Shown: positions 23,654 through 54,740 of the stretch, one piece after another
Numbering within the stretch: the stretch's first letter is position 1
How the letters are laid out: each line of letters starts with the position of its first letter
DNA from: Elusimicrobiota bacterium
GTDB lineage: Bacteria; Elusimicrobiota; Elusimicrobia; UBA1565; UBA9628
Assembly: GCA_023213235.1 (NCBI GenBank)
Contig: CP096137.1
Coordinates: 2,728,908-2,792,907 of the forward strand
Direction of reading: 5' to 3'
Length of the DNA: 64,000 bases
The notes under the pieces: generated by a model
What the model saw: the letters and a program-made list of their open reading frames with translations, nothing else
Databases searched by the model: none
Told to the model about the DNA's origin: nothing
Program-made: the position numbers and the translations under genes

Positions 23654-23677
23654 GGATTTCTAGTGGCGCCTATTCAT

Positions 23678-23944: not shown

Positions 23945-23967
23945 CTTGTCGTCGGAAATTCAGGGTC

Positions 23968-24336: not shown

Positions 24337-24357
24337 CGGCGCGAAGTTGGAATTTCT

Positions 24358-36319: not shown

Positions 36320-38258
36320 TCAATCGAGCCCGAACAGGCGCTTCCACCAGGGCCGCTCCGCGGGCGCGGGCGCCGCCGCGGCGGGGGCCAGTTCCTCGCG
36401 CTTGAGCGGCATCGTGAAGTAGAACGCGGTGCCGCGTCCGACCTCGCTCTCGAGCCACATGCGGCCGCCGTGCAGCTCGACCATCGACTTGGCGATCGGC
36501 AGGCCGAGGCCCGTGCCGCCGACGTTGTGCGGCGAGGCGACCTGCTGGAATTTCTCGAAGACGCGTTCGCGGTTCTCCGGCGCGATGCCGCACCCGTTGT
36601 CGCGCACGGCGAAGGTCACGAAGCTCACGTCGCCGGTCAGCATCGCGGCGCCGACGGCGACGGTGCCCTGCTTCGGCGTGAACTTCAGGGAGTTCGAGAT
36701 CAGGTTCACGAGCACCTGGACGGTCTTGCCCTCGTCGGCGAGGACCTCGGGCAGGTTCGGATCCGGCGTGAAGACGAGGTTGATCTGCTTCTTCGTCGCC
36801 CACGGCTTGAGGCCGTCGACGGCCTGGGAGCAGAGCTTGTTCGGGTCGCAGGCCTTCGGGTACACGCTCATCTGGCCGGACTCGAGCTTCGAGAAATCGA
36901 GGATGTTGGTGACCAAGGTGGACAGCCGCGCGGTGTTCGCGAGGCACGCCGTGAACAGCGCCATCTGCTGCTCGTCGAGCTTGTTCTTGAACGCGCGCAG
37001 GAGCAGCTCGAGCCCGGCCTGGATCGAGGCCAGCGGCGAGCGCAGCTCGTGCGTCATGTGGGCGACGAACTCGTTCTGCATCGCCTCCACTTTTTGTGCG
37101 CGGCGAGGTCCGTCAGCGCGAGCACCATGCCGACGACGCGGCCGCTCTCGTTCTTGACGACGGCCCACGAGGATCGGATCAGCATCTTGGTCTTGTCGGC
37201 GCCGCGGACCTCGATGTCCTTGCTGAGCGGCTTGTCGATCGCGGCCTCGATCTCGGCGGCGAGCGCGACGACCATCTTCGCGTCGCTCTTCGCGTTGACG
37301 GGCTTGCCGGCGACCTCGGCGAGCTTGGAGCCGTAGATCTCCTCGGCGGCCGGGTTCATCATCATGATCCGGGCCTGCTCGTCGACGATGATCGCGCCGG
37401 CGCCGACGTTGCTGAGGATGTTCTCCGTGCGGGCGCGCTCGAACTCGACGACGCCCTTTTCCTTGCGCACGATGAGCGTCGCGCTCTCGACGTTCTTCTC
37501 GATGTCCTTGCGCAGCTTCTCCATGATCAGCTTGAAGAGGACGAACTCCTCCTCCGGAGTGCGCGCGACCTTCTTGATGAGGAGCTGGATCGACGCCTCG
37601 AGGCTCTCGCCCTCGATCTGCTTCTGGACGGACTCGCCTTTCTCCGCCTCGGGGAGTCCCCGCCCTTGCCGTCGCCCTTGGCCGCGGGCTTGCCGTCGGC
37701 GCCGACCTCGGCGTAGACGGCCTCGCTGAGGACGATGTTCTTGACGCCCGCGTCGTGGAGATACTGCTTCGCGTCGACCTTCTGGTCATACGGAAGGGAC
37801 GCGAGCTGGCAGATGACGATCATCTCCCGGATCTCAAGCCCTTCTCGGAACGTGACGCTGGAAAGCTTGTAGCGGTCGATGAGGACGCTGACGGGGCCGC
37901 CGATCTGCTTGACCGTGCCGATGATGCGGCGGTTGACGATCCACTTGTCCTGATCCTTCGCGTAGACGAGCGCGCCCTGCGGCGCGCCCTTGAGCGCCGC
38001 GACGATCAGGGCCTGCGCGCCCTGCATCGTCTCGAGGACGGACGGGTGCTCGGGGCCGTACAGGCCGAGCTGGGTCACGGTCTTGCCGAACGCCGACAGG
38101 GCCTCGAGACACGACGCCTCGAACTCGGTCTTCACCGGCGCGGCGGCCGGCGCCGCCGTCTCGGCGGCGGGCGCGGGCGACACGGCCTCGGGCTCGGACG
38201 GCAGCTCGATGGAGAAATCGCCGGAGGGCGGAAGGTTCAGCGGGTCGAGAGGATCCAT
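36320..38258 (-). CDS. sensor histidine kinase with N-terminal unknown domain and PAS domain, frame broken twice
   Basis: ORFs 37527-38258, 37054-37524 and the end of 36320-37789 join at about 37655 (G/C run) and 37091-37095 (T5/A5 run). PAS: ILSNVGAGAIIVDEQARIMMMNPAAEEIYG. H-box FVAHMTHELRSPL. HATPase NLISNSLKFT, DNGCGI, GTGLGLPIAKSMV. Confidence 0.8.
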
Positions 38259-38350: not shown

Positions 38351-38428
38351 GGGGCCGTGGTGTAGCTGGCCTAACACGCCGCCCTGTCAAGGCGGAGATC
38401 GCGGGTTCAAATCCCGTCGGCCCCGCCA
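38351..38428 (+). tRNA. tRNA-Asp (anticodon GTC), CCA encoded
   Basis: GGGGCCG-TG-GTGT-AGCTGGCCTA-ACAC-G-CCGCC-CTGTCAA-GGCGG-AGATC-GCGGG-TTCAAAT-CCCGT-CGGCCCC-G-CCA. All four stems pair, with one G-T in the T stem. Confidence 0.9.
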
Positions 38429-40122
38429 GTTTTGACACTCGACGAACCCGTCTCCAGAACAATTCTGGAGGCGGGTTCGCTTGTTTCCGGGCCAAATTCC
38501 GGCCCCTGGAGACCGGCGCAGGGGTCACTATCCAGCCCCACGGCCATCCGCAGCTCCGAGAGCCGGACCTGGCCGATCATCTTCTTGACCAGCTCCCTCT
38601 TCTTGTAGGGCGCCATCTCGGAGAAAACGCGCCCGAAGTCGCGCAGCAGGTCCTTAACGGCGGTCTTTTGGATCATGTTTTTATCCATCTCCTGCGACAT
38701 CCGGTCTAAGGACTCCAGGCTCTTAAGGACCTGACCCCGTCGGCCGATGATCGCGTCGAGGCGCTCCTGCAGAAACTTCTGCGCCTCCCCGGTCATGACA
38801 TCCTTCGTGGCTGCGGCCGAGTGCGCCTCGGCCGTGAGGCGCTTGAGTTCCGCGGCCTGCAACTCTCGCTGTTCGGCGATCTTAGGCAGCTCCTCTCGCA
38901 GCTTGAGGTTGGCCATGGCGACGAGCTTGTCCACCTTGCTCTCGTCACCCAGGAGGTGTTGAAGACGCCATCTGACCAGATCCTCCACCGCCCGCGCCGG
39001 AATCCGGGTGCGGCACTTACGGCACTGGTAATACGAGTGGACAGTCTTGTTCCGACTCGTGCCGGACACGCCGCGCATCTCTCCCGTGCACTTCTCGTCC
39101 GGCTTGTTCTTATCGATGATGCGGTCGCAGCGGAGCAAGCCCTCCCCGAACAAGTAAACATGGCTCGGCTTCCTCACGCCGTTGTGCCTCGTCTTCAAGT
39201 TCGTGCCCATGAGCTTCTGCACGTCGTTGAAGAGCTTGTCGGTCACGATCCGATCCCAGACGGCCGGCACGATCCGATACTCGCCCTGTTGCTTTCCCTT
39301 CTTAGGCTTGTGGTCCAAGCTCCACTTGTTGATCTCGGCTTGACCGATATAGGCGCGGTTCGTCAGGATGCGCTTCACCGTGCTGAACGTGAAGGGTCTA
39401 TCCGTATGCCGCACGCCGCGACGGGACCGGAATCCCTGCATCCTAAACCCGGCCGCGTTGGCCGCCGCCTTCACGGCCTGGATGGAGCCGAGCTTCAAGA
39501 ACTGCCGGAAGAGCCAGACGACGATCTTAGCCTCCCGAGGATTGACCCTCAGATATCCCGGGCGCTTCGGATTGAGATCGAACCCGAACAAACGGTTGCT
39601 CACCCACAAGCCTCTCTCCGAGCGCGCCTGGATGCTGTCTTTCATTCGCTGGGAGTCGACCTCGATCTCGAATTGATTCAGCGCCATCAAGATCGTCATG
39701 ATCAGCCGGCCGTGAGCGCTCGTCGTGTCGATGTTCTCGCGAAGAGAAATGATCGCGCCGTTCTTTTCCTTGAGGATGCGCACGAAGGCGAAGAAATCCT
39801 CGATCGACCTTGAGAAGCGGCTAAGCCCCATGCAAACGATGGTGTTGATCCGGCCCCGCTTCAGGTCCGAGATCAGCCTCTGGTATTCATATCGGCGCGT
39901 GGCCTCGGCGGCCGTCTTAGGTTCCTCCAAGTAGTAGTCGACGACGTTCCACGTATTGGTGGAACCGTCTTCGTTCCGCGAGTCCAACACTTCCTCCGCC
40001 TCCTTCTTCCCCTTAAGGAACTTGTCGACGAATTGCCGCTGATTTTTCAGGGAGCCTTCCTTAACCTTCGCCTGCTTCTTTCCCGACACTCGGATATAAA
40101 CGCCCACGTTTCTGATCATCAC
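38407..40122 (-). CDS. large serine recombinase (resolvase catalytic domain + recombinase domain + zinc ribbon + coiled coil)
   Basis: VGVYIRVSGKKQ (catalytic Ser region), LSRFSRS, GAIISLRENIDTTSAHGRLIMTILMALNQFEIE, then RILTNRAYIGQ, Cys pairs C...C / CRKC, and a long helical tail. The last 22 nt including the stop overlap tRNA-Asp. Confidence 0.85.
   Translation of the reverse strand: MMIRNVGVYIRVSGKKQAKVKEGSLKNQRQFVDKFLKGKKEAEEVLDSRNEDGSTNTWNVVDYYLEEPKTAAEATRRYEYQRLISDLKRGRINTIVCMGLSRFSRSIEDFFAFVRILKEKNGAIISLRENIDTTSAHGRLIMTILMALNQFEIEVDSQRMKDSIQARSERGLWVSNRLFGFDLNPKRPGYLRVNPREAKIVVWLFRQFLKLGSIQAVKAAANAAGFRMQGFRSRRGVRHTDRPFTFSTVKRILTNRAYIGQAEINKWSLDHKPKKGKQQGEYRIVPAVWDRIVTDKLFNDVQKLMGTNLKTRHNGVRKPSHVYLFGEGLLRCDRIIDKNKPDEKCTGEMRGVSGTSRNKTVHSYYQCRKCRTRIPARAVEDLVRWRLQHLLGDESKVDKLVAMANLKLREELPKIAEQRELQAAELKRLTAEAHSAAATKDVMTGEAQKFLQERLDAIIGRRGQVLKSLESLDRMSQEMDKNMIQKTAVKDLLRDFGRVFSEMAPYKKRELVKKMIGQVRLSELRMAVGLDSDPCAGLQGPEFGPETSEPASRIVLETGSSSVKTGGADGI
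38445..38487 (+). terminator. intrinsic terminator-like hairpin after tRNA-Asp
   Basis: GAACCCGTCTCCAGAA-CAA-TTCTGGAGGCGGGTTC (16-bp stem with one T-G pair) followed by GCTTGTTT. It lies inside the 3' end of the recombinase ORF on the other strand. Confidence 0.6.
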
Positions 40123-40636: not shown

Positions 40637-41914
40637 TTATACCTGCTCCTGCTCGAGACAGGTGGGCTCTGGCGCCGGATCGTGGAGGAGATAGTGGTGC
40701 GCGACGCCCGACAAGCTGTTCGCCTTCACGAGAACAAGATCGCGTCCCTTGCCGATCTTGTCGAGCATCCCTTTAAAAACCAGCGCGGAGGCCGCGTCCA
40801 TGACGATCGTGCGGCTCCGCATGTAGAAAAAGTCCTGGTCGATGAGAGCGGCCAACCGCTGCAACAGGCTCGGATGGAGCGACCGTAGCTCGCCGTCGAG
40901 ACCAAGCTCTCCGCACAGGATCGGATCGTCCCGAAGAGGCAGCTGCAGATAGGAGCTAAGGAACGCCATGGCTATCGCCAAGTCGTGCTCCGGCAGATAC
41001 TTCCGAGAACCCGGCAAGCTGCAGGTCACCAAACTGCCGAAGCCTCCGACATCCACGCTCATGCCCCTAAGAATGCTCGTGATCTTCTGATATCCGTGTT
41101 TTGCCAACCCGTTCAGCGCCGGCCGCCGGGATCGGCAGTTGATGTTGAACTCCACCTTCGCCTCGATCTCGGCAATCCCGTGCGAGTCAAACGCCGCGGT
41201 CTTGGCCACGACCACGTCCTCGTTGCGCTGGGCGAGGAAAAGCCGCCCAATGCGGTCGACAGTGCAGACGACAGGCTCGGCCGAGGATGGGCCGAAGCGG
41301 TTCTTCGAGACGTGCAGTAGGCGATAGGCGAATGCCCGCCTTATACTGAAGACCGCGTCCACCTCGTGCTCGAGCTTCTTTGGTCCGGCGATCTGGAGGT
41401 CCTTGCGGACGTGAGCGACGTAGAACGTCGCGATATTCTGAATTCGAAGAAACTGCATCAGCCCGAAGAGCTTCTCCCATTCCCCCTGCGCCGAGGGGCC
41501 AATTCCAAGCCCCTGAAGCGAGTCGACGACCAGAACCCGATGCGGGAACGATACACTGGGCCGCGAGATAAGGTTGCTGAGCGTTTCGAGACTGTCCGCC
41601 TCGTGGATTTTGACCAGCGGAATTCCTTTCTCAGTTCCCACCGCCTGCAGGCGCCTCTGGAGTTCAGGCCGCTTCTGCTCGCTGGTGATATACGCGCAGG
41701 GGACTCCCGCCTCAGCGAATCCATTCAGCGCCTGCAGAAGTAACGTCGACTTGCTGACGCCAGGTTCGCCGGACAGCAGCAGTTGCTGGCCAGCCACAAT
41801 CCCATCGGGGAACAGCCTCTCCGAAAGTAATTCCATCGCGCATGGAATCACCGCAGGCGCCTGAGCATCCTTTCTATCGTTAGACGGCGTCATACTATCC
41901 CCCTCGCGCCCCAC
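40637..41914 (-). CDS. RadA/Sms-like ATPase with Lon-protease-like C-terminal domain, lacking the N-terminal zinc finger
   Basis: Walker A LLLSGEPGVSKSTLLLQ, Walker B RVLVVDSLQ, RadA-specific VSKNRFGPS, Lon-like C-terminus ...LCGELGLDGELRS... Confidence 0.75.
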   Translation of the reverse strand: MGREGDSMTPSNDRKDAQAPAVIPCAMELLSERLFPDGIVAGQQLLLSGEPGVSKSTLLLQALNGFAEAGVPCAYITSEQKRPELQRRLQAVGTEKGIPLVKIHEADSLETLSNLISRPSVSFPHRVLVVDSLQGLGIGPSAQGEWEKLFGLMQFLRIQNIATFYVAHVRKDLQIAGPKKLEHEVDAVFSIRRAFAYRLLHVSKNRFGPSSAEPVVCTVDRIGRLFLAQRNEDVVVAKTAAFDSHGIAEIEAKVEFNINCRSRRPALNGLAKHGYQKITSILRGMSVDVGGFGSLVTCSLPGSRKYLPEHDLAIAMAFLSSYLQLPLRDDPILCGELGLDGELRSLHPSLLQRLAALIDQDFFYMRSRTIVMDAASALVFKGMLDKIGKGRDLVLVKANSLSGVAHHYLLHDPAPEPTCLEQEQV

Positions 41915-41943: not shown

Positions 41944-42276
41944 CTACTTGGTCTTCTTGTCTTTTCCTACGACCATCTGCATCAACGCCTCGATCGTCTC
42001 ACCAGCGTCTTTAAGTCGATCGCCCTGGAGCGAATACCAGACGAACTGCCCGATCCGCCGCTTCTGAACGAGCCCAGCCTTCTCAAGAATTTGCAGTTGC
42101 TCGCAGATGTGCGACTTCGACATCTTGCGAAACGCCGAGAGTCCGTCGACGATGGTGTTCAATCCCATAGAGCCGACCGGAGTAGCCTTCAAGATGGCGA
42201 CAATCTGCAGCCGCACAGGGCTGGCGAGAGCCTCCAGGACCTCCAAGGTCTTCTTCTCGTTGCTTTGTTTCGTCAT
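41944..42276 (-). CDS. ArsR-family winged-helix transcriptional regulator
   Basis: ALASPVRLQIVAILK...MSKSHICEQLQILEKAGLVQKRRIGQFVWYSL. Confidence 0.8.
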   Translation of the reverse strand: MTKQSNEKKTLEVLEALASPVRLQIVAILKATPVGSMGLNTIVDGLSAFRKMSKSHICEQLQILEKAGLVQKRRIGQFVWYSLQGDRLKDAGETIEALMQMVVGKDKKTK

Positions 42277-42314
42277 ATTCGTATATACCTACCGATAAGC
42301 CCTAAAAAAAGCGC

Positions 42315-42746
42315 CTACTCTCGATGCAATATCTCCTTGAGTTGCTGCAGCCGCCATCCCACGAACTTCCGATTCAAGTAGCAATTCGTATGAATGCCGT
42401 TCTTCTCGGTCACGATCACTTTGGCTTCCCGCAAGATGGTCAAGTGCTGTGAAATCGTGCTCGATCTTACGCCCAGAGCCTGCGCGAGTTGCCCGACATC
42501 CATCGGCTCCTTCTTCGCCAGCAGCGCGATGAGCCGCAGCCTCGTGCTGTCCGCCACCCCACGAAGAAGTGGCATCACACGATCGACCCACTTGCCGGTC
42601 AAGAAGAAGTCGTGCGCGGCGCCGGAGCCCAAGCTCATGGACTTCGCCTGCTCGCGGGCCACAGCTTCCTCCGCCTCATCCGCCTTAATGGCGGCCTCGG
42701 CGACGTGCTCAATCGAAAATCCTGCCCGGTTCTTGGTTCGAGTCAT
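42315..42746 (-). CDS. ArsR-family winged-helix transcriptional regulator with N-terminal extension
   Basis: VADSTRLRLIALLAKKEPMDVGQLAQALGVRSSTISQHLTILREAKVIVTEKNGIHTNCYL. Confidence 0.8.
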   Translation of the reverse strand: MTRTKNRAGFSIEHVAEAAIKADEAEEAVAREQAKSMSLGSGAAHDFFLTGKWVDRVMPLLRGVADSTRLRLIALLAKKEPMDVGQLAQALGVRSSTISQHLTILREAKVIVTEKNGIHTNCYLNRKFVGWRLQQLKEILHRE

Positions 42747-42892: not shown

Positions 42893-45174
42893 TTGAAGCT
42901 ATTTATTAACTCGTTAAATGAATACCGTGACGCCACGTTTTTCAAAAACGCATTCCGCCTACTCGGCTTGCCTGGGATTTCCCAGTTGGATTCAATCCAA
43001 AAGGCCGAGGGAGCACTGCGTCGAGCGCTAAAACTTAAGGCCCTTAAGCCGACAGCCTGGGATCTCCCTGGCTGGGCCCCCTCGATCGCACGGAGCCGAG
43101 CGTTCGCGAAGCCCTCGGGAACCTCACAAGCAATCCGCTGGGCCGCTTGAACGAACGCATCTTCTGGTTCGATGGCGATATTCCTCCGGCGTCGCTTGGC
43201 AAGGACTTGCTCGATCAGGCCCTAGAGAACACTTTGGCCGGCGGAGCCATGGAGAGCGTCCATGATCACGCCCTCTTATGCCTTCTAGCAGCAATTCACA
43301 ATGACCCCGATTTTCGAGATCCTCAGCGCTGGGCTAAGGCCTTCGAAGCCTGGAAACGCCTCGCTGATGACGAAGATTATTGGGGTGCTGTCCTGGAATC
43401 AGAGATGGGCGGCGGGTTCGAGCCTGCCGCGACTGCCGATGAGATCGAACAAGTCCGCGGCAAGATTCTCGCCCAAGTCGCCGACATCGTGGCAGGGATG
43501 GCTCGTGAAGCCGTAGCACAAGGGCAGGATGATCGCTTTCAGCGCGCTGTAAAAGCACTCCGCGCCTCTGATCTGCCGACAGACCTGGTGACCAAGGTCG
43601 AGAACGAGACCTTCGGCTCACGAGAAGACAGCTTCTCGTCGAGGTGCACGGCCCTCCGCCGCGAATGTGGCGATAAGATTGAACGGGATGAAGCCGGCGT
43701 GGACGGCAATAGGGCAGCCTGCGCCGCGGCGTTAGCGAAGTTTGATGCGGAGCTTCAGCCCGAACTGTTCAAGCTGACGAGCTTAGCCGGTGCCACCAGT
43801 GACATTAGCCGTCGCTCGCGAGAAGCTGCTGCGTCGCTTTTGATGAGCATCGCGATCGACTACACTTGGGCCAACGAATTCATCACTAGCGAGAAGCTCC
43901 TAAACCGAGCTAAAGAATTGGCCCCCGAGGACTCGATAGTTAGCGAGAAGATCGAGGAGCAACTATCCGACGTCGCCGAGGCCGCTCAAAGTCAGCGGTT
44001 TCCGAAGGGATCTAAGCCTCTTGGCGACACCCCAGAGGATAAATTCGAGGCGCTTTGCATGGCGGTTCGAGTGAAATGCCGAGACAGCATTCGCCGAGAG
44101 GATGACGGCGTGTCGGCGAACCGGAAGGCCTGCGAAGCAGCCCTCGGTCGCTTCGACACTGAAATAAAACCCTCTCTAGAGCAATTGCTCAAAACAGTCG
44201 GCGCCGACTCTCCCGAAGGCCGCAGGGCACGGGACACAGCTGCGATGTGCCTGCATAGCATAGGGATCGATTTGACTTGGGCTAACGAGTTCAAGATCGC
44301 GGAAGCCACTCTCGGTGAAGGACTCGCCCTCGTGCCGCCAAAATCCGCAACAGCCCGCAAAATTGCGGATTCTCTCGAGAAGTTTCCTCGCTCGAAGTCC
44401 AAAAAGGAATCACCGAAGGCCCCCTCCGGGCGGTCCAGCGCCGCCAACGACAAGCCTGCTGCTCGGAAGCGTGAATGGGAACGGATAGACCCAATAAAAT
44501 CGGCGCCGGAGCTGCGCACGATCAACGGGATAGGGTTCACGCTCTATGGCAACACGGACCCAGAACCAATTGATCCCAAATCGGGTTACACAGGAAATTC
44601 CTACCTGACGACGTATTATTTCGTTGTTCTCGCAATCCCGGTCATTCCAATCGCTCGGTATCGAGTCATCTACACGGGAGATAAGCGCTACCTGTTCCTG
44701 CACAAAGCCCCTCTCAGGACTTTCGACAAAGTGCACCTTGGGATTTCAATCGCTCTCTGTCTCTGGTTCTTCTTCGCAGTGAATCAAGGCTCAAGCAGCT
44801 CCAGTTACTCAGGTAGCACGTCTTCGAGTTCCAGCTACTCATCTTCTCAGCGCAGCAGATCTTCCCTCCGAACGGATATCGAGAGCAATAAGCGCCGCAT
44901 CCAGGAACTCGAAGGTCAGCTCAAGATCGGGGGCGCGGAGATCGAGCGACTCAAAGGCGAAATCATGCCGCTCAAAAAACAAATTGAGGATTACGAGTCT
45001 GATGCCAAGCTCGGGAACTACGTCGATCAAGATGCCTATCAGAAGGCGATTGACGATCACAACGCTCTGGTTGGCCAGCTGAAGGCCGAAGGAGCAAGCT
45101 ACAAGAAGATTTTCGCGGAATACGATCCACTAGTCGACAAGACGAACGGTCTGATTCGGGAATACAAGAGATAA
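42893..45174 (+). CDS. J-domain-like (no HPD) N-terminus + two internal ~110-aa repeats + two TM helices + Ser-rich linker + coiled coil; frame broken once
   Basis: ORF 42893-43150 (…FFKNAFRLLGLPGISQLDSIQKAEGALRRALKLKALKPTAWDLP) joins the frame of ORF 43147-45174 (WLGPLDRTEPSVREALGNLTSNPLGRLNERIFWFDG…) by a 1-nt shift near 43070-43075. TM helices YYFVVLAIPVIPIA and VHLGISIALCLWFFFAV. SSSSSYSGSTSSSSSYSSS. C-terminal heptad-like region. Confidence 0.6.
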
Positions 45175-45176
45175 AC

Positions 45177-45566
45177 ATGGCAGACGCCGCGACCATCGAG
45201 ACCCCGCTGCAAGCGTTGATCGACTTGGCGATTGACCACTGGCGACTCAGCCGCTGGCTATTGGGCTCCGAGAACGATCGGACCAAGGCGACGCCCAGAC
45301 AGACAGTCAGGCGTTTAGAATCGTTTTTTGCTGATCGTGAGATTTCCATCCTCGACATCACCGGCAGGCCCTATGAAGCCGGGCTGCCCGTTGAGGTGCC
45401 GGATACAATCGACGATCCGAATCTGCCGAACGGCGAAATTGTCGTTGATGAAGTCCTGTCCCCCATCATTCTGTGGCGCAAGAACGTGGTCCGTCACGCC
45501 AAAATTGTAGTCCGCCGCGGCCAAGGCGCGCCGAAGGCGACAAGCAGCGAGGACTCTAAGTCATGA
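45177..45566 (+). CDS. mini-GrpE-like nucleotide-exchange-factor homologue
   Basis: 129 aa. LQALIDLAIDHWRL and ITGRPYEAGLPVEVPDTIDDPNLPNGEIVVDEVLSPIILWRKNVVRHAKIVVRRG align by eye with GrpE (LLPVIDSLDRAL ... G.PFDP..H.A......pg.vv.v...GY....r.lR.A.V.V). The long N-terminal helix of GrpE is absent. Confidence 0.6.
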   Translation: MADAATIETPLQALIDLAIDHWRLSRWLLGSENDRTKATPRQTVRRLESFFADREISILDITGRPYEAGLPVEVPDTIDDPNLPNGEIVVDEVLSPIILWRKNVVRHAKIVVRRGQGAPKATSSEDSKS

Positions 45567-48072
45567 GCAACTTCATCAAATACGGCATCGACCTCGGCAC
45601 CACCAACTCATGCATCGCTCGTTGCGAGGGCACGGATATTCGGGTTTACCCCAACAACGAGCAGATGAACGTCACCCCGTCTGCCGTCCGCCTCCTGAAG
45701 TCGGGACGGCTGATCGTTGGGCAGCGTGCCTACGCAGCTCTCTCAGTCGATCCGGATAACGTCGCCATCGAATTTAAGCGCTGGATGGGCCAAAAGAACA
45801 CAGCGAATTTCCCTGTGGCCGCTCGGACGCTGTCCGCCGAGGAGCTTTCGGCCGAGGTCTTGAAGTCTCTGTGCGAGAACGCCCAACGACACTCGGGCGA
45901 GGAGATCAGGGCTGCAGCCGTCACGGTGCCTGCCGCGTTTGGCGCTCTTCAATGCGAAGCCACTGCCCGAGCTGCACGCCTAGCCGGGCTCGAGGAGAGC
46001 CCGCTCCTGCAAGAGCCGATCGCCGCCGCAATCGCGTATGGCATTGCTCCGGGAGCCAAGGACCAGCGCTGGCTCGTCTTCGACCTTGGCGGCGGAACGC
46101 TCGACGTGGCGATCATTTCTACGCGAAATGGCCGGTTGGCCGTCCTGGAACACCGCGGCAACAATCTTCTGGGCGGCAAGGACATCGACCGCCGGATCGC
46201 GGAGGAGTTCTTGCTGCCTGCGTTGGCCAAGGACTTCGCACTCCCTGAGCCGGGAAGCCCCGAGCACAAACGCCTCCTCCGTCGTCTGATCGCCAAAGCA
46301 GAGGAAGCGAAGATCGAACTCAGCACGGCGCCCAAGGTAGTGGTTAGCCTGATCGATCTTGGGGAAGATACCGCGGGAGAGTCCCTGGAAGGGGAGGTCC
46401 AACTTTCACGCGCGCAACTTGAGCGCACGATGCAGCCCGTTGTCGAAGAATGTCTCCGCCTCACGAAAGAAGCAATTGCAGGCGCCCGGATGGCGGCTGC
46501 GGACCTGGATCGAATCCTGCTGGTAGGCGGCCCGACGCAGAGCCCCCTGATCCGGGCAGCTCTAACAGAGCAGGTCAGCAAGAACGTGGATTTCTCCCTC
46601 GATCCTATGACGGTAGTTGCTCGCGGCGCGGCTCTGTTCGCCGCATCTGTCGAACGAACCTCAAACGCCCCGGCTCCGGCAGCGACCGGGAAGCTTTCCG
46701 CCCAGCTGGCTTTCGACCCGGTGAGTTCGTCTCTACAGTGTCCTGTCTCAGGGCGAGTTGATCATGGCGATGGCGTTCACGCCCATGAGATCAAGATCGA
46801 CTCAGAGGATGGCTTCTGGACGAGCGGCTGGGTGCCCTTGGCGGATGATCTTTTTGAGGTTAACGCCGGACTACAGGAAGACAAGGTTTCACGTTTTTGG
46901 CTCTACGCGCGCGACAAGAATGGCCAGCTCCTTGAAATTGAACCTGGGGAATTCAGCATCCGACAAGGCCTCGTGGTGTCAGCGCCTCCGCTCCCCCATA
47001 CTATTTCGGTCGAAGTCGCGGGCGCCAACGGCAAACCCATGCTCGAGCCCGTATTTGCCCGGAGCACCCCGCTCCCCAACCAGCAGGTGAAGAAGTATCG
47101 GGCTAGCCACACGCTGAATCCAAACGAACCTGGAACTGTCCTGGTTATCAAGCTCTGGGAGGGCGAGGAGCTTTCCGATCCCGAAGCGAACGTCTGGGTG
47201 GGCAAAATGCTCATCGCTTCGGACGACATTCAGCGCGCGATTCCCGAAGGCTCTGAAATTGAACTCTCGATCAATATCGATGCGTCACGGCACATCACTG
47301 TCGAGGCCTTCGTCCCCCATCTAAACAAGCACTTCGCGGATCATGTCTATGTTCCGCAGCGAGACGAGCAGGACTACTCCCACCTGGCCCGCGCCGTCAG
47401 CTCGGAGGTGGAGACCCACAATCAGCGCCTGGAAGAAATCGAAAAGCGTATAGGCGATGGGGATGGCAAGGAAGGAGTTCAAGAGCTTCGCAAGGAGATC
47501 GACAGCCTCTCCCGGGAGCAGACCCCGAGGCCGAGACCTCGGGCACGAGCGATCCAGACAAGGACAAACGGGTCGTCGAACACTCCCGAAGAATCCGCAT
47601 TAAGATCGCCGAACTCGAACGAGGCGCGGGAGTTGAACACGAGAAGGCTGCGCTTACCAACGAGCTGGAGTCCAACGCAGCCGGCACTACCGATGTTATC
47701 GGCCGGTATGGATCAGCCCTTGAAAAGAAGGAACTCGAAATCTTGAAGCGGGATCTCGAGCGCGCCCTCCAAAAGGACGATGATCGTGGCCTTGAGAAGA
47801 TCAACAGCGCGCTCGTCGCTCTTCGCCTGCGGGTCCTCTTTAAGCAGGACTGGTTTTGGAAGGAAGTCTTTGAATCGATGCAGGAGCCGGGTTGCAGCTA
47901 CTTGAACGAAGCTGAGGCGAAGCGCTGGATCGCGCAGGGAAACGCGGCCGTAAAACAAGGCGACGGTGATGGCCTCAGAGAAAGCGTTCGGCAGCTCTGG
48001 AAGCTCCAGACTCCTACGCAGGCGCAGGCGGAGCAGGAGAAGGCTCTACGCTCTGGGCTGAGCAAATACTAG
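45563..48072 (+). CDS. atypical Hsp70-family ATPase with inserted domain and long helical C-terminal extension, frame broken once
   Basis: YGIDLGTTNSCIA, VFDLGGGTLDVAI, LLGGKDID, ILLVGGPTQSPLIR. SBD-beta-like ...ELSINIDASRHITVEAFV. ORF 45563-47746 turns into Arg/Pro-rich text after about 47520, while the frame of ORF 47743-48072 is open upstream (DPEAETSGTSDPDKDKRVVEHSRRIRIKIAELER...). ATGA overlap with the GrpE-like gene. Confidence 0.8.
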
Positions 48073-48074
48073 CC

Positions 48075-49640
48075 ATGAAACCACTCGCGCGCAAACCTAG
48101 CCTGCCGGCGGGAACGGCTATCCCAGACTTCCCGGCGATCACGAAGGCGCTTCATACTGACGCCCTGTGCGAAGTCTATCTTCTGGACCAGACCGAGCAG
48201 GGCAGCCTCCTCCTTGTCGCTCTCCAGGGCACGGGAGACAAGGAGGCCGCGCTTAGCCGGCAACTTACCCAGTGGTGGGCGGATCTTGCCCCGGCGCTCG
48301 AGGTCAAGAGCGCCTTCCGCAAGGGTTCCACAGGAGCCAAGAGACTGGAAGCCGTCATCAAGGTCACCGGGGAGTGGCTTGGCGCACGAAAGGACGAAGT
48401 TGTTGAAGAACAGGAGTTGTTTGCCGTCCTGGGCGCGCTCACAAGTCTCTCAGAGCGCGCGGCTGATGCCGACATGCTTCCGAACCTTCTGCCATCGTTG
48501 CTCTGGAAATCTTTCGCCGGAGCAAAGACACAAATTACGTCCGTTTTCGCTTCCACCCAATCACCCGAGCAGGAAGACGGCCACGTCCGACAGCTGGCCT
48601 CGGTTTTCTATTGGCTTGCTGCAGGAATCGATGTTTCCATTTCAGCTCAGGAGCCCAAGCCTCTCAGCCGCTGGTGCAAGACGGCCGGAACGCGCCTTTC
48701 CTCCGTGATCGGCAGGTGCCTGACCACCGCTAAGAGCCCCGATCGCATTGTTTCCATCGAAGAACTCAGGCAGGCCCTCTCTCAGAACACCGAGGGGCAA
48801 CCTCACGTTCCAAAGAAGAAGAGTCGCGCCGCCAGCGGCAAGTCCGCGAAGGGTCTGGCCAAGGTCGCAGGGATGCACACCTTGAAGGCTCTTCTTGAGC
48901 GTGACATCGTGAAGCCGCTTCGCGATCCTGAGCCGTTTCGACGTTACGGCCTCACAATCCCCAACGGCGTATTGCTGTATGGGCCGCCTGGCTGCGGGAA
49001 AACCTATATCGCACGCCAGCTCGCGGAGGAACTCGGATACTACTTCGCGGAGGTCATCCCCTCGCAAGTCGCCGGAATCCACATCCATGAGACGGTCATG
49101 CGCATCCGCGAGGTGTTCGACACTGCGGCAGAGCGCGCGCCTGCCATCGTCTTTATCGATGAATTTGAGGCCCTGGTGCCCTCCCGCTCAGACCTCGGTG
49201 GCCACCAGCAGTATAAGTCAGAGGAGGTCAATGAGTTTTTAGCACAGCTGAACTCCTGCGCGGATCGAAAGATCTTCGTGATAGCGGCGACAAACGAGCC
49301 GAATAAGATCGACCCAGCGATTCGACGCACGGGCCGCCTCGACAAACTTATCTATGTTGGCCCTCCTGATGCCGAAGCTCGGACCGAAATGCTTCGTCTT
49401 CACCTAGATAGCAGGCCGCTCGACAAATCTCTCGCGGCCGGATCGGTCTCACTGACTCTCGAAGGCTATTCGGCTAGCGACATCAAGTTCTTGGTGGACG
49501 AAGCAGCCCGCCTTGCTCTTGGGCGCGGCGCGCCGATCTCATCTGAAATTCTGATGGAGGCAAGCCGGCAAATCCCTCCTTCAGTGACGAAGGCGGACGA
49601 AAAGCGCTATCAGTCGTTCGAGGAGCGCGGCTCAAAATAG
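48075..49640 (+). CDS. AAA+ ATPase (classic CDC48/FtsH-like clade) with unique ~280-aa N-terminal domain
   Basis: GVLLYGPPGCGKTYIARQLA (Walker A), APAIVFIDEFEAL (Walker B), VIAATNEPNKIDPAIRRTGRLD (sensor 1 / Arg finger), lid SASDIKFLVDEAARLAL. The start is 2 nt after the Hsp70 stop. Confidence 0.85.
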   Translation: MKPLARKPSLPAGTAIPDFPAITKALHTDALCEVYLLDQTEQGSLLLVALQGTGDKEAALSRQLTQWWADLAPALEVKSAFRKGSTGAKRLEAVIKVTGEWLGARKDEVVEEQELFAVLGALTSLSERAADADMLPNLLPSLLWKSFAGAKTQITSVFASTQSPEQEDGHVRQLASVFYWLAAGIDVSISAQEPKPLSRWCKTAGTRLSSVIGRCLTTAKSPDRIVSIEELRQALSQNTEGQPHVPKKKSRAASGKSAKGLAKVAGMHTLKALLERDIVKPLRDPEPFRRYGLTIPNGVLLYGPPGCGKTYIARQLAEELGYYFAEVIPSQVAGIHIHETVMRIREVFDTAAERAPAIVFIDEFEALVPSRSDLGGHQQYKSEEVNEFLAQLNSCADRKIFVIAATNEPNKIDPAIRRTGRLDKLIYVGPPDAEARTEMLRLHLDSRPLDKSLAAGSVSLTLEGYSASDIKFLVDEAARLALGRGAPISSEILMEASRQIPPSVTKADEKRYQSFEERGSK

Positions 49641-49660: not shown

Positions 49661-52600
49661 ATGCAGTCTCCCAGCAAAAAGCGGCTTGGCCAACTCTTCG
49701 GCTTCCTGGATAGCCTCAACCAGCTCCGGAACCAGCCGACAAAACTCATTGGAGATCAGCCCTGGGCTCTCTCGTTCCAGGACCTCCCCGATCACCCCTC
49801 GATCGAGCGCGCGGCAATTCTCGATGTCGATGATGATGCCGAGCAGGAAGACAAGAAGCCTCCCGAGGCCGCCGAAGTCGTCAACGACTTCGTTCTCAGA
49901 GTCAGCCGTCCCGAACTGACGAACGCCCCGACTCCCCCGACAACGTCAAGGAGTGGCTTAACCTCGGCTGGGAGCAGCTCGACGGCGTCGTCACCTGCCG
50001 GGAGTCGCGCAATGAAACCACTCCCGAGGGACAAACGGTTATCGTTAGGTTTGACGCTGATCCGGCGCGCGTCAACTCGCTTAAAGAATGGGAGGCGGTC
50101 CGAGCCCAGTGGGTCATCAACGAGCGCCCAGCGCGAGCCGCCATGGCTCTCTTCGAGCGGCTCTACGAGCTTCATGGGCAGATCGAGCGCGAAGGCGAGC
50201 GCTTCGAGCTGATACTAGGCGACGGCATCCTGTCGTGGCGCCGGCCCGAAGGCGGGGTCCTTCATCCCATCCTGCTCAAGAGAATCCAACTGCAGTTTGA
50301 CGCCGATGCGCCTGAATTCAAGTTCGTTGAGACGGGCACTCCGACCGAGATCTATTCGGCGCTTTTCCGCTCGATGAATGATGTCGACGGCAAGCTCCTT
50401 GGAAAGTGCCGCGAGGAAGTTGAAAAACGCGGCTACCACCCCATGGGCGCGGGACTCACCAGCGGGTTCCTCCGCAAATTCGCCCAACTGCTGAACGCTC
50501 AAGGGCAGTATGCCGATTCGCTCCCTTTACGCATAGAGACCGATCATCCCCGGATCAGCCGAAATCCCTACATCTTCCTCCGCTCACGCTCCCTGGGTTT
50601 TACGACGGCCATCGAAGCCATCCTCGAGGACATCCAGAAGCGCGACGAGTTCTCCCCGTCGCTGATGAATATCGTCGGCATCGAGACCCGCCCAAGCGTC
50701 GGGGATATAGACCCCGAGGACTACGTGGAGCCCACTGCCCCGATGGGCAACGAGGACGTCGACATCCTGCTCTCGAAGCCGGCGAATCCCGAACAATTGA
50801 AGCTCGCCCAGCGCCTTGAACAGCATGGGTCCGTCGTTGTCCAAGGACCTCCTGGCACCGGGAAGACGCATACAATCGCCAATCTCCTGGGACATCTTCT
50901 TGCTCAGGGTAAGAGTGTCCTCGTCACCAGTCATACCTCAAAGGCGCTTCGCGTCCTTCGCGAGAAGGTCGTCGAGTCACTCCAGCCCTTGTGCGTCAGC
51001 GTTCTGGAGAGCGACCTGGACAGTCGCAAGCAGCTCGAGGGCTCTGTTTCGAAGATCGTTGAACGGCTGACCTCTTCAGATACAAAGGACCTCCAGCGGC
51101 GCGCCGAGACGCTGACGAAAGCCCGGGCAAACCTGCTGGGGAGATCGAGCAGACGCGTCGCGATCTCATCGGCGCCAGGAATGGCGAATACCGCGACATC
51201 GTGGTGGCAGGCCAGGCCCTCACGCCCAGCGCAGCCGCACGACTCGTTACCTCTCGCCAGAACGACGACTCCTGGATTCCCGCGCCGGTGGTGCTCGGCG
51301 CTCCTATCCCGCTTAGCGAAACCGAACTCCACGAGCTTTATCGAAGCAACGAGGCAGTGACTGCCCACGACGAGAACGAACTTGGCCTCGAACTGCCGGA
51401 GCTGGATGACCTTCCCCATCCCGCTCAATTCAGGCGCGCGGCTGAAAACTATCAGCAACTGTCCCAGCTGGATCGAGACCACGGCATCCGCTTTTGGAAA
51501 GATCAGGCGCCTGAAATCGCGATTCTCTGCGTTAAATGCAACAAGCGAAACAGGGGCCGGGTCCCGCAGGGCGCTGATCGAAAGGAATTTCTTGCGAAGC
51601 TGCGCTGCGGCAACGCCAAGTGCAAGGCGCCTTTCGAATCTTCTGCGACGGAGCCCTTCCACACGGTCGCCCTGACTCCCGAGCGACTGGAAACCCTCCT
51701 CGAGACGACTCGAGAGGCCGCGCAGCTGATCCCTCCCGATCCGCACTGGTCGGCAGAAGCGATCATGGCAGGACTCAAAGGTGGTCCACACCGAGAGCCC
51801 TGGGACAATCTTGTCGCAGAAATTGACGCGCTGACCAAGCTCGCCGGCGAAACCAAGGAACTGATTCTCCGCCACAACCCCTCCATCGCTGCGGCCGTCA
51901 CGCTGGACGAAGCCGAAAGTCGTCTGGTTGAGATACAACAGCACTTTGCTACAGGCGGCAGCCTCTCCTTCTGGAGCTTGCTGACGAAGCCGGCGTGGAA
52001 GAAGCTAATCGCGGCTTGCGCCGTTGAGGGCTCCACACCGGCCAAGAAGGAACATTTTACGGCGCTCCATGCCCATGTTCGCCTCACCGTCTCTCGCAAT
52101 CGTGTCATCACAAGATGGGAACGCATGGTGTCCACGTCGGGCGGCGTAAGCAAAGAAGATCTGGGCGTCAATCCCGAAGCGGTGCTTGAGCAGTTCCGTG
52201 CCGAACTGATTCGCCTGCTCAATTGGCACAGCGACAAGTGGCAGCCGATCCAGACCGAACTGGATGAGATCGGCCTGCTGATGGAGCAGATAATCGAGGG
52301 CATCCCGCCTATCACGTCCGCGACGGGGCCAATCCTTCGTATTCGCACAGCTGCCACGCAGAACCTCCCGCCGATCCTCACCGCTCGGGCCAGCAAGATA
52401 CGGTGGGAGGAAGCGAAGACCTTTATCGACTCGCTGACCACTCGCCTCAAGAGCGCCCCGCGGAAGGCCCGCTCCGAGCATGTTGCAGGTCTGCACACCG
52501 CCGTGGAGACGCTCGACGCCGACAAATATTCCATCGCCTTCGACGGCTTGAGCGTCCTCCTGAACAAGCGCAAGCTGTTGGCCCGCCGCAAGGAATTGCT

Positions 52601-54740
52601 GTCCAAGCTCGCCGCCTCAGCACCTGGATGGGCGGCGGCTATCGAGCATCGGCGCAAGCCCCATGACGGGAGCATTGTTCCCGATGGCATTCAGCAAGCA
52701 TGGCTTTGGCGGCAGCTCCACGATGAGATTGAACTGCGGAATAGCGTTTCTGCCGAAGAGCTGCAGGCCCGCCTCGAAACCCTAACGGGGACGCTCCAGA
52801 CGACTACGGCCGAGCTGATCGACAAACGGGCCTGGGCAGCGCAGGTCGATAAGACCTCCCATACCCAGCGCCAAGCCCTCACTGGGTGGGTCGAGACGAT
52901 CCGCCGCATCGGGCGAGGCACCGGCCGCCGCGCGCCGCGACTTGAGGTCGAAGCTCGCAAGCTGATGGGAGATTGCCGCTCAGCCGTTCCCGTTTGGATC
53001 ATGCCCCTTTCTCGAGTAGTCGAGAATTTTGACCCCGCAAAACGCGCTTCGACGTGGTCGTGGTCGATGAAGCGAGCCAGCTCGATGTCATGGGCCTAAT
53101 AGCGCTTTATATGGCCGATCAAGTCGTCATCGTCGGCGACCATGAGCAGGTCAGCCCCGAGGCCGTCGGCCAGAAGCTGGACGAAGTTCAGCACTTGATC
53201 GACGAGCACCTGGGAGAAGTGCCGAACGCGAATCTATACGACGGCAAGCTGTCAGTCTACGATCTGGCGAAGACCGCCTTCGGCGGTCAGCTCTGCCTTC
53301 GCGAGCACTTCCGCTGCGTCGAAGAGATCATTCAGTTCAGCAATCACCTCTGCTACCACGGCCAGATTAGACCCCTCCGGGACTCCTCCACCGTCCCCCT
53401 CAAGCCCCACATCCTCGAGCACCGAGTCGATGGGCAGTGCGATCAGAACAACGTAAATCACAACGAATCTCTCGCAGTTGCGTCGCTAATTGCAGCGGCG
53501 ATTAAGCAGCCCGAATACCGGGGCAAGACCTTCGGAGCCATCTCGCTGCTCGGCGACGAGCAGGCACGCGACATCGAGAGCATGCTCCGCAGGCATTTGG
53601 CGCCCGCCATCTTCGAGGAGCGCCGCATCAGTGTGCGGCAATGCAGCGCACTTCCAAGGTGACGAGCGCGATGTGATGTTCCTCACCCTCGTGGATTCGC
53701 CGCAGGGAACGCCCCACCCCTTCCGGGATCAACCCCTGTTCAGAAAGCGCTTCAACGTGGCCGCCAGCCGTGCCCGCGACCAGATGTGGATCGTGCACTC
53801 CCTCAACGCGGAGCGAGATCTCCAGCCCGGCGACCTTCGGCGCCGTCTGATCCAGCATGCACAGGACCCGATGGCGACCGTCCGTTTGCTTCAAAAGGAA
53901 GAGGCCCGAACGGACTCTGAATTTGAGCGCCAAGTCCTTGCCAGGCTCGTAGACGCAGGCTATCGCGTCAAGACGCAGTGGCGGGTGGGCTACTACCGGA
54001 TCGACATGGTCGTTGAGGGCAATGCGGCCCGCCTGGCTGTTGAATGCGACGGCGACAAATACCACACCATGGAGAATCTCCATGAAGACATGGCTCGCCA
54101 GTCGGTTCTCGAGCGCCTCGGCTGGAAGTTCATCCGGATCAGAGGCACTCGGTTCTTCCGCCGGCCCGACCAAGAAATTCAGCGCATCCTGGACAAGCTC
54201 AACGCGCTCGGCATTGAAAAATTGGGGGCGTCCAACGATCAGCAGCAAGCCCAGGCTGGCAACCAAGAATTGACCGACCGCCTGAACCGTGCTGCGGAAG
54301 AGATTCGCCAGCTATGGGCCTCAGACCCAGCCTACGTCTACGAGGAGGTGCCTGCCAAGCAACGGCGCTCCTCCTCCTGGAAGAAGCAAGCCCCCGGCAC
54401 CGCCTGGGGCAGGCAGCGGCACCCCGAGCCGCCTGCAGCACCCAAACCGGCCCAAGAAGACGAGCTGCCTCTCGAGATCGATGAGCCCGAAACTGATGGC
54501 CGCAAGATCGACGACATCCCGCAAGAAGATATTCGCGAAGCCCTCCGGAACCTTGTCCCCAAAGGTGCTCGAGTTCCCCGGGAAGAGCTTTTAAAGAAAC
54601 TCGTGTCCGCTCTGGGGCAACAGCGCCTCGGTCGCAAGATTCGCAGTCGCCTTAACCGGGCTATTGGCGGCGAGACCCGGGCTGGTAATCTTGAGACCGA
54701 TTGGGACTTTGTCTGGAGGTCGCCTGATTCAGGGTCTTAG
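49661..54740 (+). CDS. DUF4011-type Upf1/DNA2-like SF1 helicase with large inserted region and C-terminal Vsr/DUF559-like endonuclease domain, frame broken four times
   Basis: Joins near 49935, 51140, 53040 and 53630 link ORFs 49661-50212, 50143-51360, 51201-53099, 53054-53662 and 53490-54740. [16 protein letters not shown] (DUF4011-like). [18 protein letters not shown] (motif I). [11 protein letters not shown] (motif II). [67 protein letters not shown]...[12 protein letters not shown] (nuclease). Zn ribbon CVKCNK...CGNAKC in the insert. Confidence 0.8.

Follow-up and report, generated by a model that had tools for sequence, protein, structure and literature searches.

A membrane-anchored, atypical Hsp70 machine on a tRNA-Asp island of an Elusimicrobiota genome, accessory and mobile in many lineages

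Canonical J domains require an HPD tripeptide to stimulate Hsp70. In the mitochondrial presequence translocase-associated motor, mtHsp70 and Mge1/GrpE are combined with the membrane-anchored Pam18 and with the J-like Pam16, which lacks HPD. E. coli HscC, whose lid is shortened, works with neither a dedicated GrpE nor an AAA+ ATPase, and its partners DjlB and DjlC retain HPD. In the Zorya defence system, ZorAB forms a peptidoglycan-anchored envelope sensor and ion-driven stator. Bacterial DnaK derivatives are largely unexplored (2026 review), and the function of HscC–DjlB/DjlC is still poorly defined (PMC13580251). Predicted conflict systems centred on GAP1-N2 GTPases contain Hsp70, GrpE and DnaJ-FNIII proteins (Kaur et al. 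2020, PMC7159879). Their defining parts are TRAFAC GTPases, to which tubulin may be added, and proteins with FNIII repeats, and they occur mainly in Actinobacteria and Firmicutes (PMC7159879). In the CoCoNuT, or NxD-McrBC, systems (Bell et al. 2024, PMC11090510), the Hsp70-like CnuD has degenerate Walker A-like motifs and is tied to homologues of McrB and McrC and to HEPN nucleases. Here we describe four consecutive genes, g1–g4, at positions 42893–49640 of a 64,000-nucleotide stretch (the window) of contig CP096137.1, a 3.8-Mb contig of an Elusimicrobiota metagenome-assembled genome (MAG), and compare the Hsp70 machine that they encode with these systems.

The machine is complete, atypical and membrane-anchored, and it is accessory and mobile in many lineages. 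It comprises a membrane protein with a J-like domain (g1), a truncated GrpE (g2), an Hsp70 (g3) and an AAA+ ATPase (g4), and these molecular assignments are solid. We read g1–g4 as one operon encoding a self-contained machine that is accessory cargo of a tRNA-Asp island and that acts, in its AAA+-bearing version, as a conflict system at the cell envelope; for this reading as a whole we put the chances at about even. The part of it that makes the AAA+-bearing mobile version an anti-phage or anti-mobile-element system, which would sense or act at the envelope, is plausible but unproven.

Open reading frame (ORF) calling in the window places the four genes on the plus strand, separated by a 2-nt gap (g1/g2), a 4-nt ATGA overlap (g2/g3) and a second 2-nt gap (g3/g4). 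The ORF coordinates agree with the arrangement described in an earlier, sequence-only reading of the window, and every motif quoted there (IDLGTTNS, FDLGGGTLDV, LVGGPTQSP, GPPGCGKT, IVFIDEFE and FFKNAFRLLGLPGISQLDSIQKAEGALRRALKL) is found. In three-frame translation, a single frameshift interrupts each of g1 and g3. Single-base repair yields proteins of 760 aa and 836 aa, which match intact relatives (747 aa and ~837 aa, respectively) over their full length, and the repaired g3 has 100% length coverage against more than 100 intact proteins of ~837 aa. The 129-aa g2 protein is identical to GenBank M0D55_15055, and g3 is annotated in GenBank as a truncated 727-aa Hsp70 (P0005). The genes and their parts are as follows.

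42893–45174, plus strand: g1, membrane protein, 760 aa after repair, TTG start; called as ORFs 42893–43150 and 43147–45174
42944–43170, plus strand: J-like domain of g1, without HPD (residues 18–93)
43077–43081, plus strand: frameshift site of g1, a C5 run in which a 1-nt deletion breaks the frame
43258–43278, plus strand: near-invariant HDxA(L) motif of g1, ~30 aa past the J-like domain
43624–43965 and 44035–44376, plus strand: two internal helical repeats of g1, from BLASTP of its halves
44599–44751, plus strand: juxtamembrane motif and transmembrane segment(s) of g1 (residues 570–588 and 614–632, hydropathy scan)
44788–45171, plus strand: Ser-rich linker and C-terminal coiled coil of g1 (weak coiled-coil Pfam matches, fragment residues 558–664)
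45177–45566, plus strand: g2, one ORF of 129 aa, predicted truncated GrpE-type nucleotide exchange factor
45563–48072, plus strand: g3, atypical Hsp70, 836 aa after repair; called as ORFs 45563–47746 and 47743–48072
45584–46657, plus strand: nucleotide-binding domain (NBD) of g3, with intact phosphate-1, phosphate-2 and adenosine motifs
46712–46972, plus strand: extra six-stranded beta-domain of g3 (residues ~384–470, ~85 aa), between NBD and substrate-binding domain (SBD)
46985–47353, plus strand: substrate-binding beta-sandwich of g3 (residues ~475–597)
47372–48069, plus strand: helical lid and long helical tail of g3, ending in conserved RSGL[RS]K[FY]
47511–47516, plus strand: frameshift site of g3, within cccggg, where one added base restores the frame
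48075–49640, plus strand: g4, one ORF of 521 aa
48075–48860, plus strand: private N-terminal domain of g4, ~262 aa
48861–49640, plus strand: single classic-clade AAA+ module of g4 (residues ~263–521)

The centre of the machine is g3, an Hsp70 predicted from its motifs to be ATPase-competent, with a true SBD, an extra beta-domain and a long helical tail. Pfam HSP70 (PF00012) matches residues 8–361 (1.4e-72), and GIDLGTTNS, FDLGGGTLD and LVGGPTQ are near-invariant across 57 relatives, as the intact ATPase signatures noted earlier had led one to expect. The SBD was undetected by Pfam or sequence profile and was revealed by the structure model: the AlphaFold2 (AF2) model of residues 385–650 (mean predicted local distance difference test, pLDDT, 89.9) comprises the extra beta-domain, followed by an eight-stranded sandwich and helices. 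All of the 50 top Foldseek matches to this model are SBDs of Hsp70, DnaK or HscA (probability 1.0, E down to 5e-8), and hhalign aligns g3 in register with the SBD of E. coli DnaK. Model strands 8–84 fall outside this structural match. In place of the short hydrophobic linker of VLLLDV type that directly joins the two domains of Hsp70, the ~85-aa beta-domain intervenes, and a 'GLVVSAPPLPHT' stretch preceding the SBD is a candidate equivalent of the linker. The helices start at model residue 222, giving ~230 aa of helix after the SBD beta-sandwich; the ~190 aa of tail beyond the modelled region are helical, and the C-terminal RSGL[RS]K[FY] is conserved in the A2 and A4 family alignments. The inserted segment and the tail correspond to those recognised in the sequence-only reading, which had estimated them at ~100 and ~240 aa.

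The exchange factor, g2, is on the evidence of its predicted structure a truncated GrpE with predicted exchange activity. The window protein has no Pfam match, the gathering threshold of GrpE (PF01025) not being reached, and 13 of its 71 relatives match Pfam GrpE weakly (best 2e-6). Its AF2 model (pLDDT 93.9) consists of two helices and a small beta-domain, for which the top 12 Foldseek matches are all GrpE (probability 1.0, TM-score ~0.57–0.59); the best match of the family profile in the PDB is GrpE 4ANI, in register (E=0.026). Model, Foldseek and profile agree on the C-terminal helix pair, which contributes to a four-helix bundle in the GrpE dimer, and on the beta-domain that contacts the Hsp70 NBD. 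The long N-terminal helix of GrpE, its thermosensor and substrate-release region, is missing, the model beginning at the helix pair, so that the earlier description of g2 as a C-terminal half of GrpE without that helix holds. With two helices, a beta-domain and top structural matches that are all GrpE, g2 is therefore best described as a GrpE of which only the portion in contact with the Hsp70 NBD is left. Its family comprises 304 representative clusters, most of 110–135 aa. We note that some family members are fusions of mini-GrpE, a transmembrane helix and a C-terminal LysM domain (P0185, P0250 and P0268; L096 9001–9975 and L098 491–1261), in which the exchange factor consequently sits on a peptidoglycan-binding membrane protein.

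The membrane protein, g1, carries a J-like domain without HPD, placed by its predicted topology on the cytoplasmic side. From the N-terminus, it contains the J-like domain, the HDxAL motif, the two helical repeats, the juxtamembrane/transmembrane module, the Ser-rich linker and the coiled coil. The N-terminal ~75 aa form a strongly conserved domain in family alignment A3, and 25 of the 26 PDB matches of the A3 profile are J domains, the best being weak (E=4.7e-4). Pfam DnaJ (PF00226) is marginal (2 of 41 relatives, E=0.03), and hhalign against E. coli DnaJ covers helix I–II and nothing further. The N-terminal motif FFKNAFRLLGLPGISQLDSIQKAEGALRRALKL occurs without HPD, a tripeptide that none of the 41 aligned relatives contains; its position aligns to 'lgv' or 'KLG', followed by a helix II–III loop that is ~8 residues longer. 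A J-domain-like N-terminus lacking HPD had been proposed from the letters of the window, and the profile matches, though weak, are in keeping with it. Past this domain, H112, D113 and A115 of the HDxAL motif are at least 90% conserved in A3, and the two repeats, also seen in the earlier reading, share 46% identity over 114 aa (BLASTP, E=8e-33). A conserved juxtamembrane motif, NGxGFxLYG...SY(L/V)TTYYFVxLxIPxIPIxRYRV (window 44500–44700, residues ~540–600), with a marginal transmembrane score, precedes the transmembrane helix; the g1 proteins of L099 and L100 carry the same module, and there the second segment alone scores as transmembrane. At least one transmembrane segment is present in all 13 relatives scanned for hydropathy. 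The two hydrophobic segments, the Ser-rich stretch and the weak coiled-coil matches agree with the two transmembrane helices, linker and coiled coil originally assigned to g1. The linker and coiled coil are probably extracytoplasmic, judging by the predicted topology. In L099, a Desulfobaccales orthologue whose Hsp70 is 57% identical, an SH3_3 domain lies between the transmembrane segment and the C-terminal coiled coil; together with LysM and PG_binding_1 partners in related operons, this points to an extracytoplasmic g1 C-terminus and to a system that would link a chaperone engine in the cytoplasm to the cell wall. The suggestion that the machine may act at the membrane through g1 is strengthened by the transmembrane segments of the 13 relatives and by these peptidoglycan-binding ectodomains. 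Two tandem J-like domains occur in the g1 of one Bacillota MAG (L071 3285–6695), and two tandem g1 paralogues in a Terriglobales locus (L004/L005 4945–9604).

The last gene, g4, encodes what its motifs and profile matches identify as a single-ring Cdc48/p97-like AAA+ ATPase. It matches Pfam AAA (PF00004; 2.6e-33) and AAA_lid_3, its best PDB matches are the D2 domain of Cdc48/p97/VAT (E ~1e-83), and its Walker A GPPGCGKT, Walker B IDEFE, sensor-1 ATN and Arg fingers RRTGR are conserved in 22 relatives. Instead of the two rings of ClpB/Hsp104, g4 has one AAA module, and it matches neither Clp_N nor the coiled-coil M-domain, with which ClpB/Hsp104 docks Hsp70. N-terminal of residue ~226, there are no matches in Pfam, PADLOC or the PDB, and the N-terminal domain has no detectable relatives outside the g4 family; the sequence-only reading had recognised a classic-clade AAA+ ATPase behind this unique domain, estimated at ~280 aa.

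When 185,579 species genomes were scanned with the profile of the Hsp70 C-terminus, 95 coding stretches were obtained; 80 loci, all in MAGs, were kept. The g1-g2-g3 triad is present in ~80 species of at least 10 phyla, the phyla and classes including Elusimicrobiota, Acidobacteriota, Myxococcota, Cyanobacteria-related Melainabacteria, Alpha- and Deltaproteobacteria, Armatimonadota, Bacillota, Planctomycetota and Chlorobiota. In nearly all 80 loci the three genes are adjacent, with g1 upstream of mini-GrpE and Hsp70, and g4 follows in ~22 of them, as it does in the window. At ~25% identity, the Hsp70 C-terminal architecture recurs on plasmids of cultured Proteobacteria and on one E. coli chromosome. 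The proteobacterial gene order is mini-GrpE, Hsp70, g4-type AAA+, single-pass membrane proteins and a soluble J-like protein; the membrane proteins share an N-terminal GFAGLSSLVSDVD motif and have PG_binding_1 or SH3_3 ectodomains, and the soluble protein, encoded last, starts with a shortened J-like domain. Firmicutes-like metagenome contigs encode a mini-GrpE fused to a transmembrane helix and a LysM domain, two proteins with a J-like domain (A3 profile, E ~3e-9) and an AAA+ of a different subfamily, with AAA_lid_6. The persistence of the four functions together despite changes in gene order, fusions and AAA+ type is strong evidence for one working unit. Cultured strains with a version of the module include E. 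coli HeN100, Shewanella xiamenensis, Polaromonas naphthalenivorans CJ2 and Vibrio rumoiensis, which makes the defence hypothesis directly testable; among 5426 complete E. coli genomes, one or two carry the distant version. The HeN100 locus consists of WP_076487106, WP_076487107 and WP_076487108 and of two genes downstream of them.

Two observations concern the partners in these variants. The motif GFAGLSSL(V/E)S(D/N)VD, cytoplasmic and N-terminal, stands before a transmembrane segment and a PG_binding_1 or SH3_3 ectodomain at L086 11696–13141 and 16364–17413, L087 5884–7158 and L089 16281–16967, and may serve the Hsp70 or the AAA+ as a docking site or client peptide. At L074 1269–2696 and 10 other Pyrinomonadaceae loci without AAA+, the Hsp70 gene is often followed, after ~41 nt and in the same orientation, by the gene for a 475-aa DUF805-family membrane protein, which may be an alternative partner where AAA+ is absent.

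The neighbourhood, for which the sequence-only reading had proposed a test of conservation and of enrichment in defence islands, is conserved; its context is split, the AAA+-bearing version lying mostly in integrative, conjugative or defence settings and the Pyrinomonadaceae triad in a housekeeping one. Among the AAA+-bearing loci, L100 lies in an integrative and conjugative element (ICE), between a type IIG restriction–modification system and GmrSD; L101 lies beside type IV secretion system genes and an SNF2/methyltransferase/ResIII cluster; and one further locus adjoins an Hhe-type helicase. L001/L093, listed as an IMG/VR viral contig, is an integrase-bearing element with a methyltransferase, the neighbours in L001 being an amidase, a methyltransferase, an integrase and RadC. 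All four genes together are present on two IMG/VR viral contigs, and no match was found among 50,697 GenBank phage genomes. The Shewanella and Aeromonas versions are Tn7-like cargo, the Polaromonas version (pPNAP01) adjoins zorA, with ZorA/ZorB of Zorya, the E. coli HeN100 version stands beside rdrB (RADAR) and dptF (a Dnd remnant) in a CP4-like island, and the Sinorhizobium version beside a methyltransferase and a Gabija-like gene pair. The 148 flanking proteins of 21 loci include matches to Hhe, PDC-S37, DISARM DrmA/B and BrxL, as well as integrases, resolvases, transposases, TrwB and TrwC.

From established Hsp70 and AAA+ mechanism, a working order g1, g2, g3, g4 can be proposed. In this order, g1 would tether and load g3 at the inner membrane via its J-like domain, and g2, presumably a dimer like GrpE, would release ADP and reset g3. 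The Hsp70 would then pass a bound polypeptide to a g4 hexamer, which would unfold or extract the client, in a relay resembling the DnaK-to-ClpB logic or the mitochondrial import motor. The extracytoplasmic part of g1, which in relatives corresponds to an SH3, LysM or PG_binding_1 domain, may couple the cytoplasmic engine to the state of the envelope. A conflict-system role for the AAA+-bearing version is inferred from gene neighbourhood. A more specific proposal, which we offer tentatively and regard as doubtful rather than likely, is an envelope-spanning, Hsp70-centred immune system in which a wall-contacting ectodomain and the J-like domain would report envelope perturbation or phage proteins to the Hsp70, with its minimal GrpE, and to the Cdc48-like unfoldase, and these would act on a target of the virus or the host by remodelling, extracting or destroying it. 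If so, the chaperone cycle itself would be the sensing and executing engine of a bacterial antiviral defence.

In the window, the module lies in an island of lower G+C. G+C falls from ~0.69 upstream to 0.52–0.61 from 38 kb through the window end, and the left boundary is marked by a tRNA-Asp gene adjoined by a large serine recombinase. These boundary genes, the G+C drop, the rarity of the module and its patchy spread over phyla agree with the earlier view of an island-borne, horizontally acquired operon. No repeat of the tRNA as att site is found within the window, so the right boundary lies outside the view. A scan for promoters and terminators found nothing exceeding shuffled expectation. 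The other features of the island are listed below.

38351–38428, plus strand: tRNA-Asp(GTC) (ARAGORN; Rfam tRNA 67.8 bits), left boundary of the lower-G+C island
38407–40122, minus strand: large serine recombinase (Pfam Resolvase 6e-23, Recombinase 3e-16), adjoining the tRNA; the island integrase
40637–41914, minus strand: KaiC/RadA-like ATPase with a ChlI/Lon-like C-terminal piece
41944–42746, minus strand: two ArsR-family helix-turn-helix genes, between the recombinase side and g1
42315–42746, minus strand: ArsR/HTH_5-family regulator (Pfam HTH_5 5e-12, HTH_20 1e-11), divergent from g1
42799–42771, minus strand: sigma-70-like site in the intergenic region common to the ArsR gene and g1; the count of such sites is not above shuffles
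49661–54740: helicase-nuclease (AAA_11/AAA_12, MTES_1575/DUF559, DUF3320), best PADLOC matches PDC-S37 and Hhe
55302–58701: unannotated ORFs of 621 aa and 364 aa, upstream of DUF4062-NACHT
59036–61797: DUF4062 ORF overlapping a NACHT ORF in another frame
63307–63975, minus strand: DprA-like (DNA_processg_A/SLOG) gene, near the window end and inside the low-G+C island

The ArsR/HTH_5 gene divergent from g1 is a possible regulator of the g1–g4 operon. The helicase-nuclease, broken by frameshifts into at least four overlapping ORFs, starts 21 nt past g4 and was considered as a fifth component; its homologues are adjacent to the module in L004/L005 only, and more weakly in L009, and it is therefore better read as an independent neighbouring defence gene. 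The DUF4062 and NACHT ORFs are probably one frameshifted DUF4062-NACHT gene of bacterial NLR-like type. Outside the island, G+C dips to 0.53 at window 23000–25000 within a region otherwise of ~0.69, where no Rfam match reaches the gathering threshold (no rRNA).

Several observations weigh against the conflict-system reading of g1–g4 or against the machine as drawn. The defence role is guilt by association, taken from gene neighbourhoods only; within g1–g4, no toxin or nuclease effector is recognisable by Pfam or PADLOC, and a second batch of flanks yields few defence matches. Some 50 Pyrinomonadaceae/Acidobacteriota loci are without g4 and are syntenic with genes for a molybdopterin oxidoreductase, NrfD, a peptidase, a glycosidase and an ABC-F protein, which looks like a vertically inherited cellular function. 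Housekeeping genes also flank L003, with Hsp20 and ClpB nearby, and the AAA+-bearing L099. Pore loop 1 of g4 has no aromatic residue, the sequence being GIHIH in the window, L001 and L024; most g4 relatives have SPY[IV]H or SPF[IV]H at this position, that of p97 MWFG. The J-like domain, being without HPD, may allow g1 to bind g3 without stimulating it. The frameshifts of g1 and g3 in the present assembly are a further point. That g1–g4 in the source genome are a decaying pseudogene cluster, a reading compatible with functional readings of intact copies elsewhere, is suggested by the single frameshift in each of the two genes, the truncated 727-aa annotation, and the fragmentation of the adjoining helicase-nuclease (at least four pieces) and DUF4062/NACHT gene (two). 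Both shifts are, however, losses of one base within a G/C homopolymer, as is typical of consensus errors from long reads, and apart from them the frames of g1 and g3 are open, conserved end to end and free of internal stops. Outside the island, a core histidine-kinase gene shows a comparable overlap of frames: at window 36320–38258, the histidine-kinase ORF and a 243-aa ORF, whose Arg/Ser-rich terminal tail looks out of frame, overlap by ~260 nt in different frames. If this overlap is a frameshift in a core gene, it would favour assembly error for the island frameshifts too. We consider decay unlikely, and the homopolymer frameshifts of g1 and g3 are assembly errors with somewhat better than even probability.

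The main rival accepts the machine and changes its purpose: a specialised proteostasis or envelope-stress module, in which a membrane-tethered Hsp70, with or without the AAA+ unfoldase, maintains, extracts or assembles certain proteins of the membrane or envelope. It would be inherited vertically in some lineages and elsewhere be carried by mobile elements for fitness or stress tolerance, as are the heat-resistance loci of plasmids and islands. The Pyrinomonadaceae clade is best explained in this way, its housekeeping synteny without AAA+ being conserved in ~50 species, and the flanks of L099 and L003 fit as well. Intact catalytic motifs, a true peptide-binding domain and the lack of a toxin-like effector among the core genes are all expected of such a module, and peptidoglycan-binding partners suit envelope maintenance as well as sensing. 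Against this stands the AAA+-bearing version, which is rare and patchy and lies repeatedly in integrative, conjugative, Tn7 or defence settings (restriction–modification, GmrSD, Zorya, RADAR, Gabija-like, Hhe/PDC-S37); such rarity, down to one or two in 5426 complete E. coli genomes, and such settings are not the pattern of a generally useful proteostasis factor. Proteostasis may well be the ancestral role, and as an account of the module it is possible, its chances falling well short of even. The mobile settings could instead mean that the module serves its carrier, by helping a prophage, ICE or transposon with its establishment, transfer or morphogenesis, or by acting in counter-defence. Many phages depend on host DnaK, DnaJ and GrpE, and the two viral contigs with the full set, the neighbours of L001, the type IV secretion genes abutting L101 and the Tn7-like cargo of Shewanella and Aeromonas would all be in keeping with this; yet the search of phage genomes was empty, the module is also found outside any recognisable element, and the carriers are so unrelated in kind (tRNA island, ICE, Tn7, plasmids) that no single element function is served, which leaves this account improbable. 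There is next to no chance that g1–g4 are simply the genome's housekeeping grpE-dnaK-dnaJ operon, as the side-by-side Hsp70, GrpE-like and J-like genes might suggest. E. coli possesses canonical DnaK, and its strain HeN100 has the distant version. The dnaK gene is reported in 98.9% of bacteria (PMC11019930), as against 95 stretches in 185,579 species genomes for this family; the genes lie in a lower-G+C island bounded by tRNA and recombinase, not in a core location beside an HPD-containing DnaJ, and the GrpE is truncated, the J-like domain without HPD and the Hsp70, of 836 aa, endowed with an extra domain. Island location, rarity and atypical parts together rule this candidate out. The reading of g1–g4 as a mobile, membrane-anchored Hsp70 machine, with a conflict role for its AAA+-bearing version, is the one that we carry into the comparison with described systems.

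Searches with the PADLOC-DB v2.0.0 hidden Markov models gave no match for g2 or g3, a marginal match of g1 to the JetC coiled coil (E=0.016) and generic AAA-domain matches of g4 to IetA and TRIP13; with no system-specific match in g1–g4, membership in a PADLOC system is ruled out. Full-text literature searches, including by RefSeq protein accessions, found no published description of the g1–g4 system, and the opinion that it belongs to no named defence family therefore stands. Membership in the GAP1-N2 GTPase-Hsp70 systems is rejected as well: g1–g4 and the window flanks contain no Pfam GTPase-family or FNIII domain, and the partner is an AAA+ ATPase. Compared with CnuD of CoCoNuT, g3 has intact ATPase motifs, its own exchange factor and a J-like partner, and there is no McrBC, so that this assignment is likewise excluded. 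Should immunity be proven, the module would represent a new class of anti-phage defence, one powered by the remodelling of proteins at the envelope of the cell.

With Zorya, the module shares a membrane-spanning component with a peptidoglycan-binding ectodomain, cytoplasmic machinery and a defence-island location; there is no homology, and the engine here would be an ATP-driven chaperone rather than an ion-driven stator. E. coli HscC with DjlB/DjlC is likewise a specialised, non-housekeeping Hsp70 with membrane-anchored J-type partners, from which g3 differs in being much longer and in forming a separate family. Like the mitochondrial import motor, the module appears to use a membrane-tethered J or J-like protein to position an Hsp70 that has a GrpE-type exchange factor, and in that motor a J-like domain without HPD is a natural component. 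Unlike the motor, g1–g4 include no translocon or Tim44-like partner and add an AAA+ ATPase, and homology is at the domain level only; by this analogy, the resemblance may indicate a possible working mode, not family membership.

The closest likeness in composition is to DnaK-DnaJ-GrpE with ClpB, in that an Hsp70 with intact ATPase motifs and a peptide-binding sandwich, a GrpE fold, a J-like partner and an AAA+ ATPase are encoded together. The differences concern each of the parts. The long N-terminal helix is missing from g2, and the J-like domain of g1 is without HPD and lies within a membrane protein. Compared with DnaK, g3 has an extra beta-domain that replaces the simple linker, and a 230-aa tail. 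Compared with ClpB, g4 is a single Cdc48-D2-like ring without the M-domain, so that any docking to Hsp70 must work differently. The g1–g4 module as a whole is accessory and mobile, not core. In sum, as a chaperone system g1–g4 are a previously undescribed variant of known Hsp70 machinery, a complete and portable machine whose minimal GrpE, HPD-less J-like partner, linker-inserted Hsp70 and Cdc48-like ATPase in place of ClpB are natural experiments on Hsp70 mechanism.

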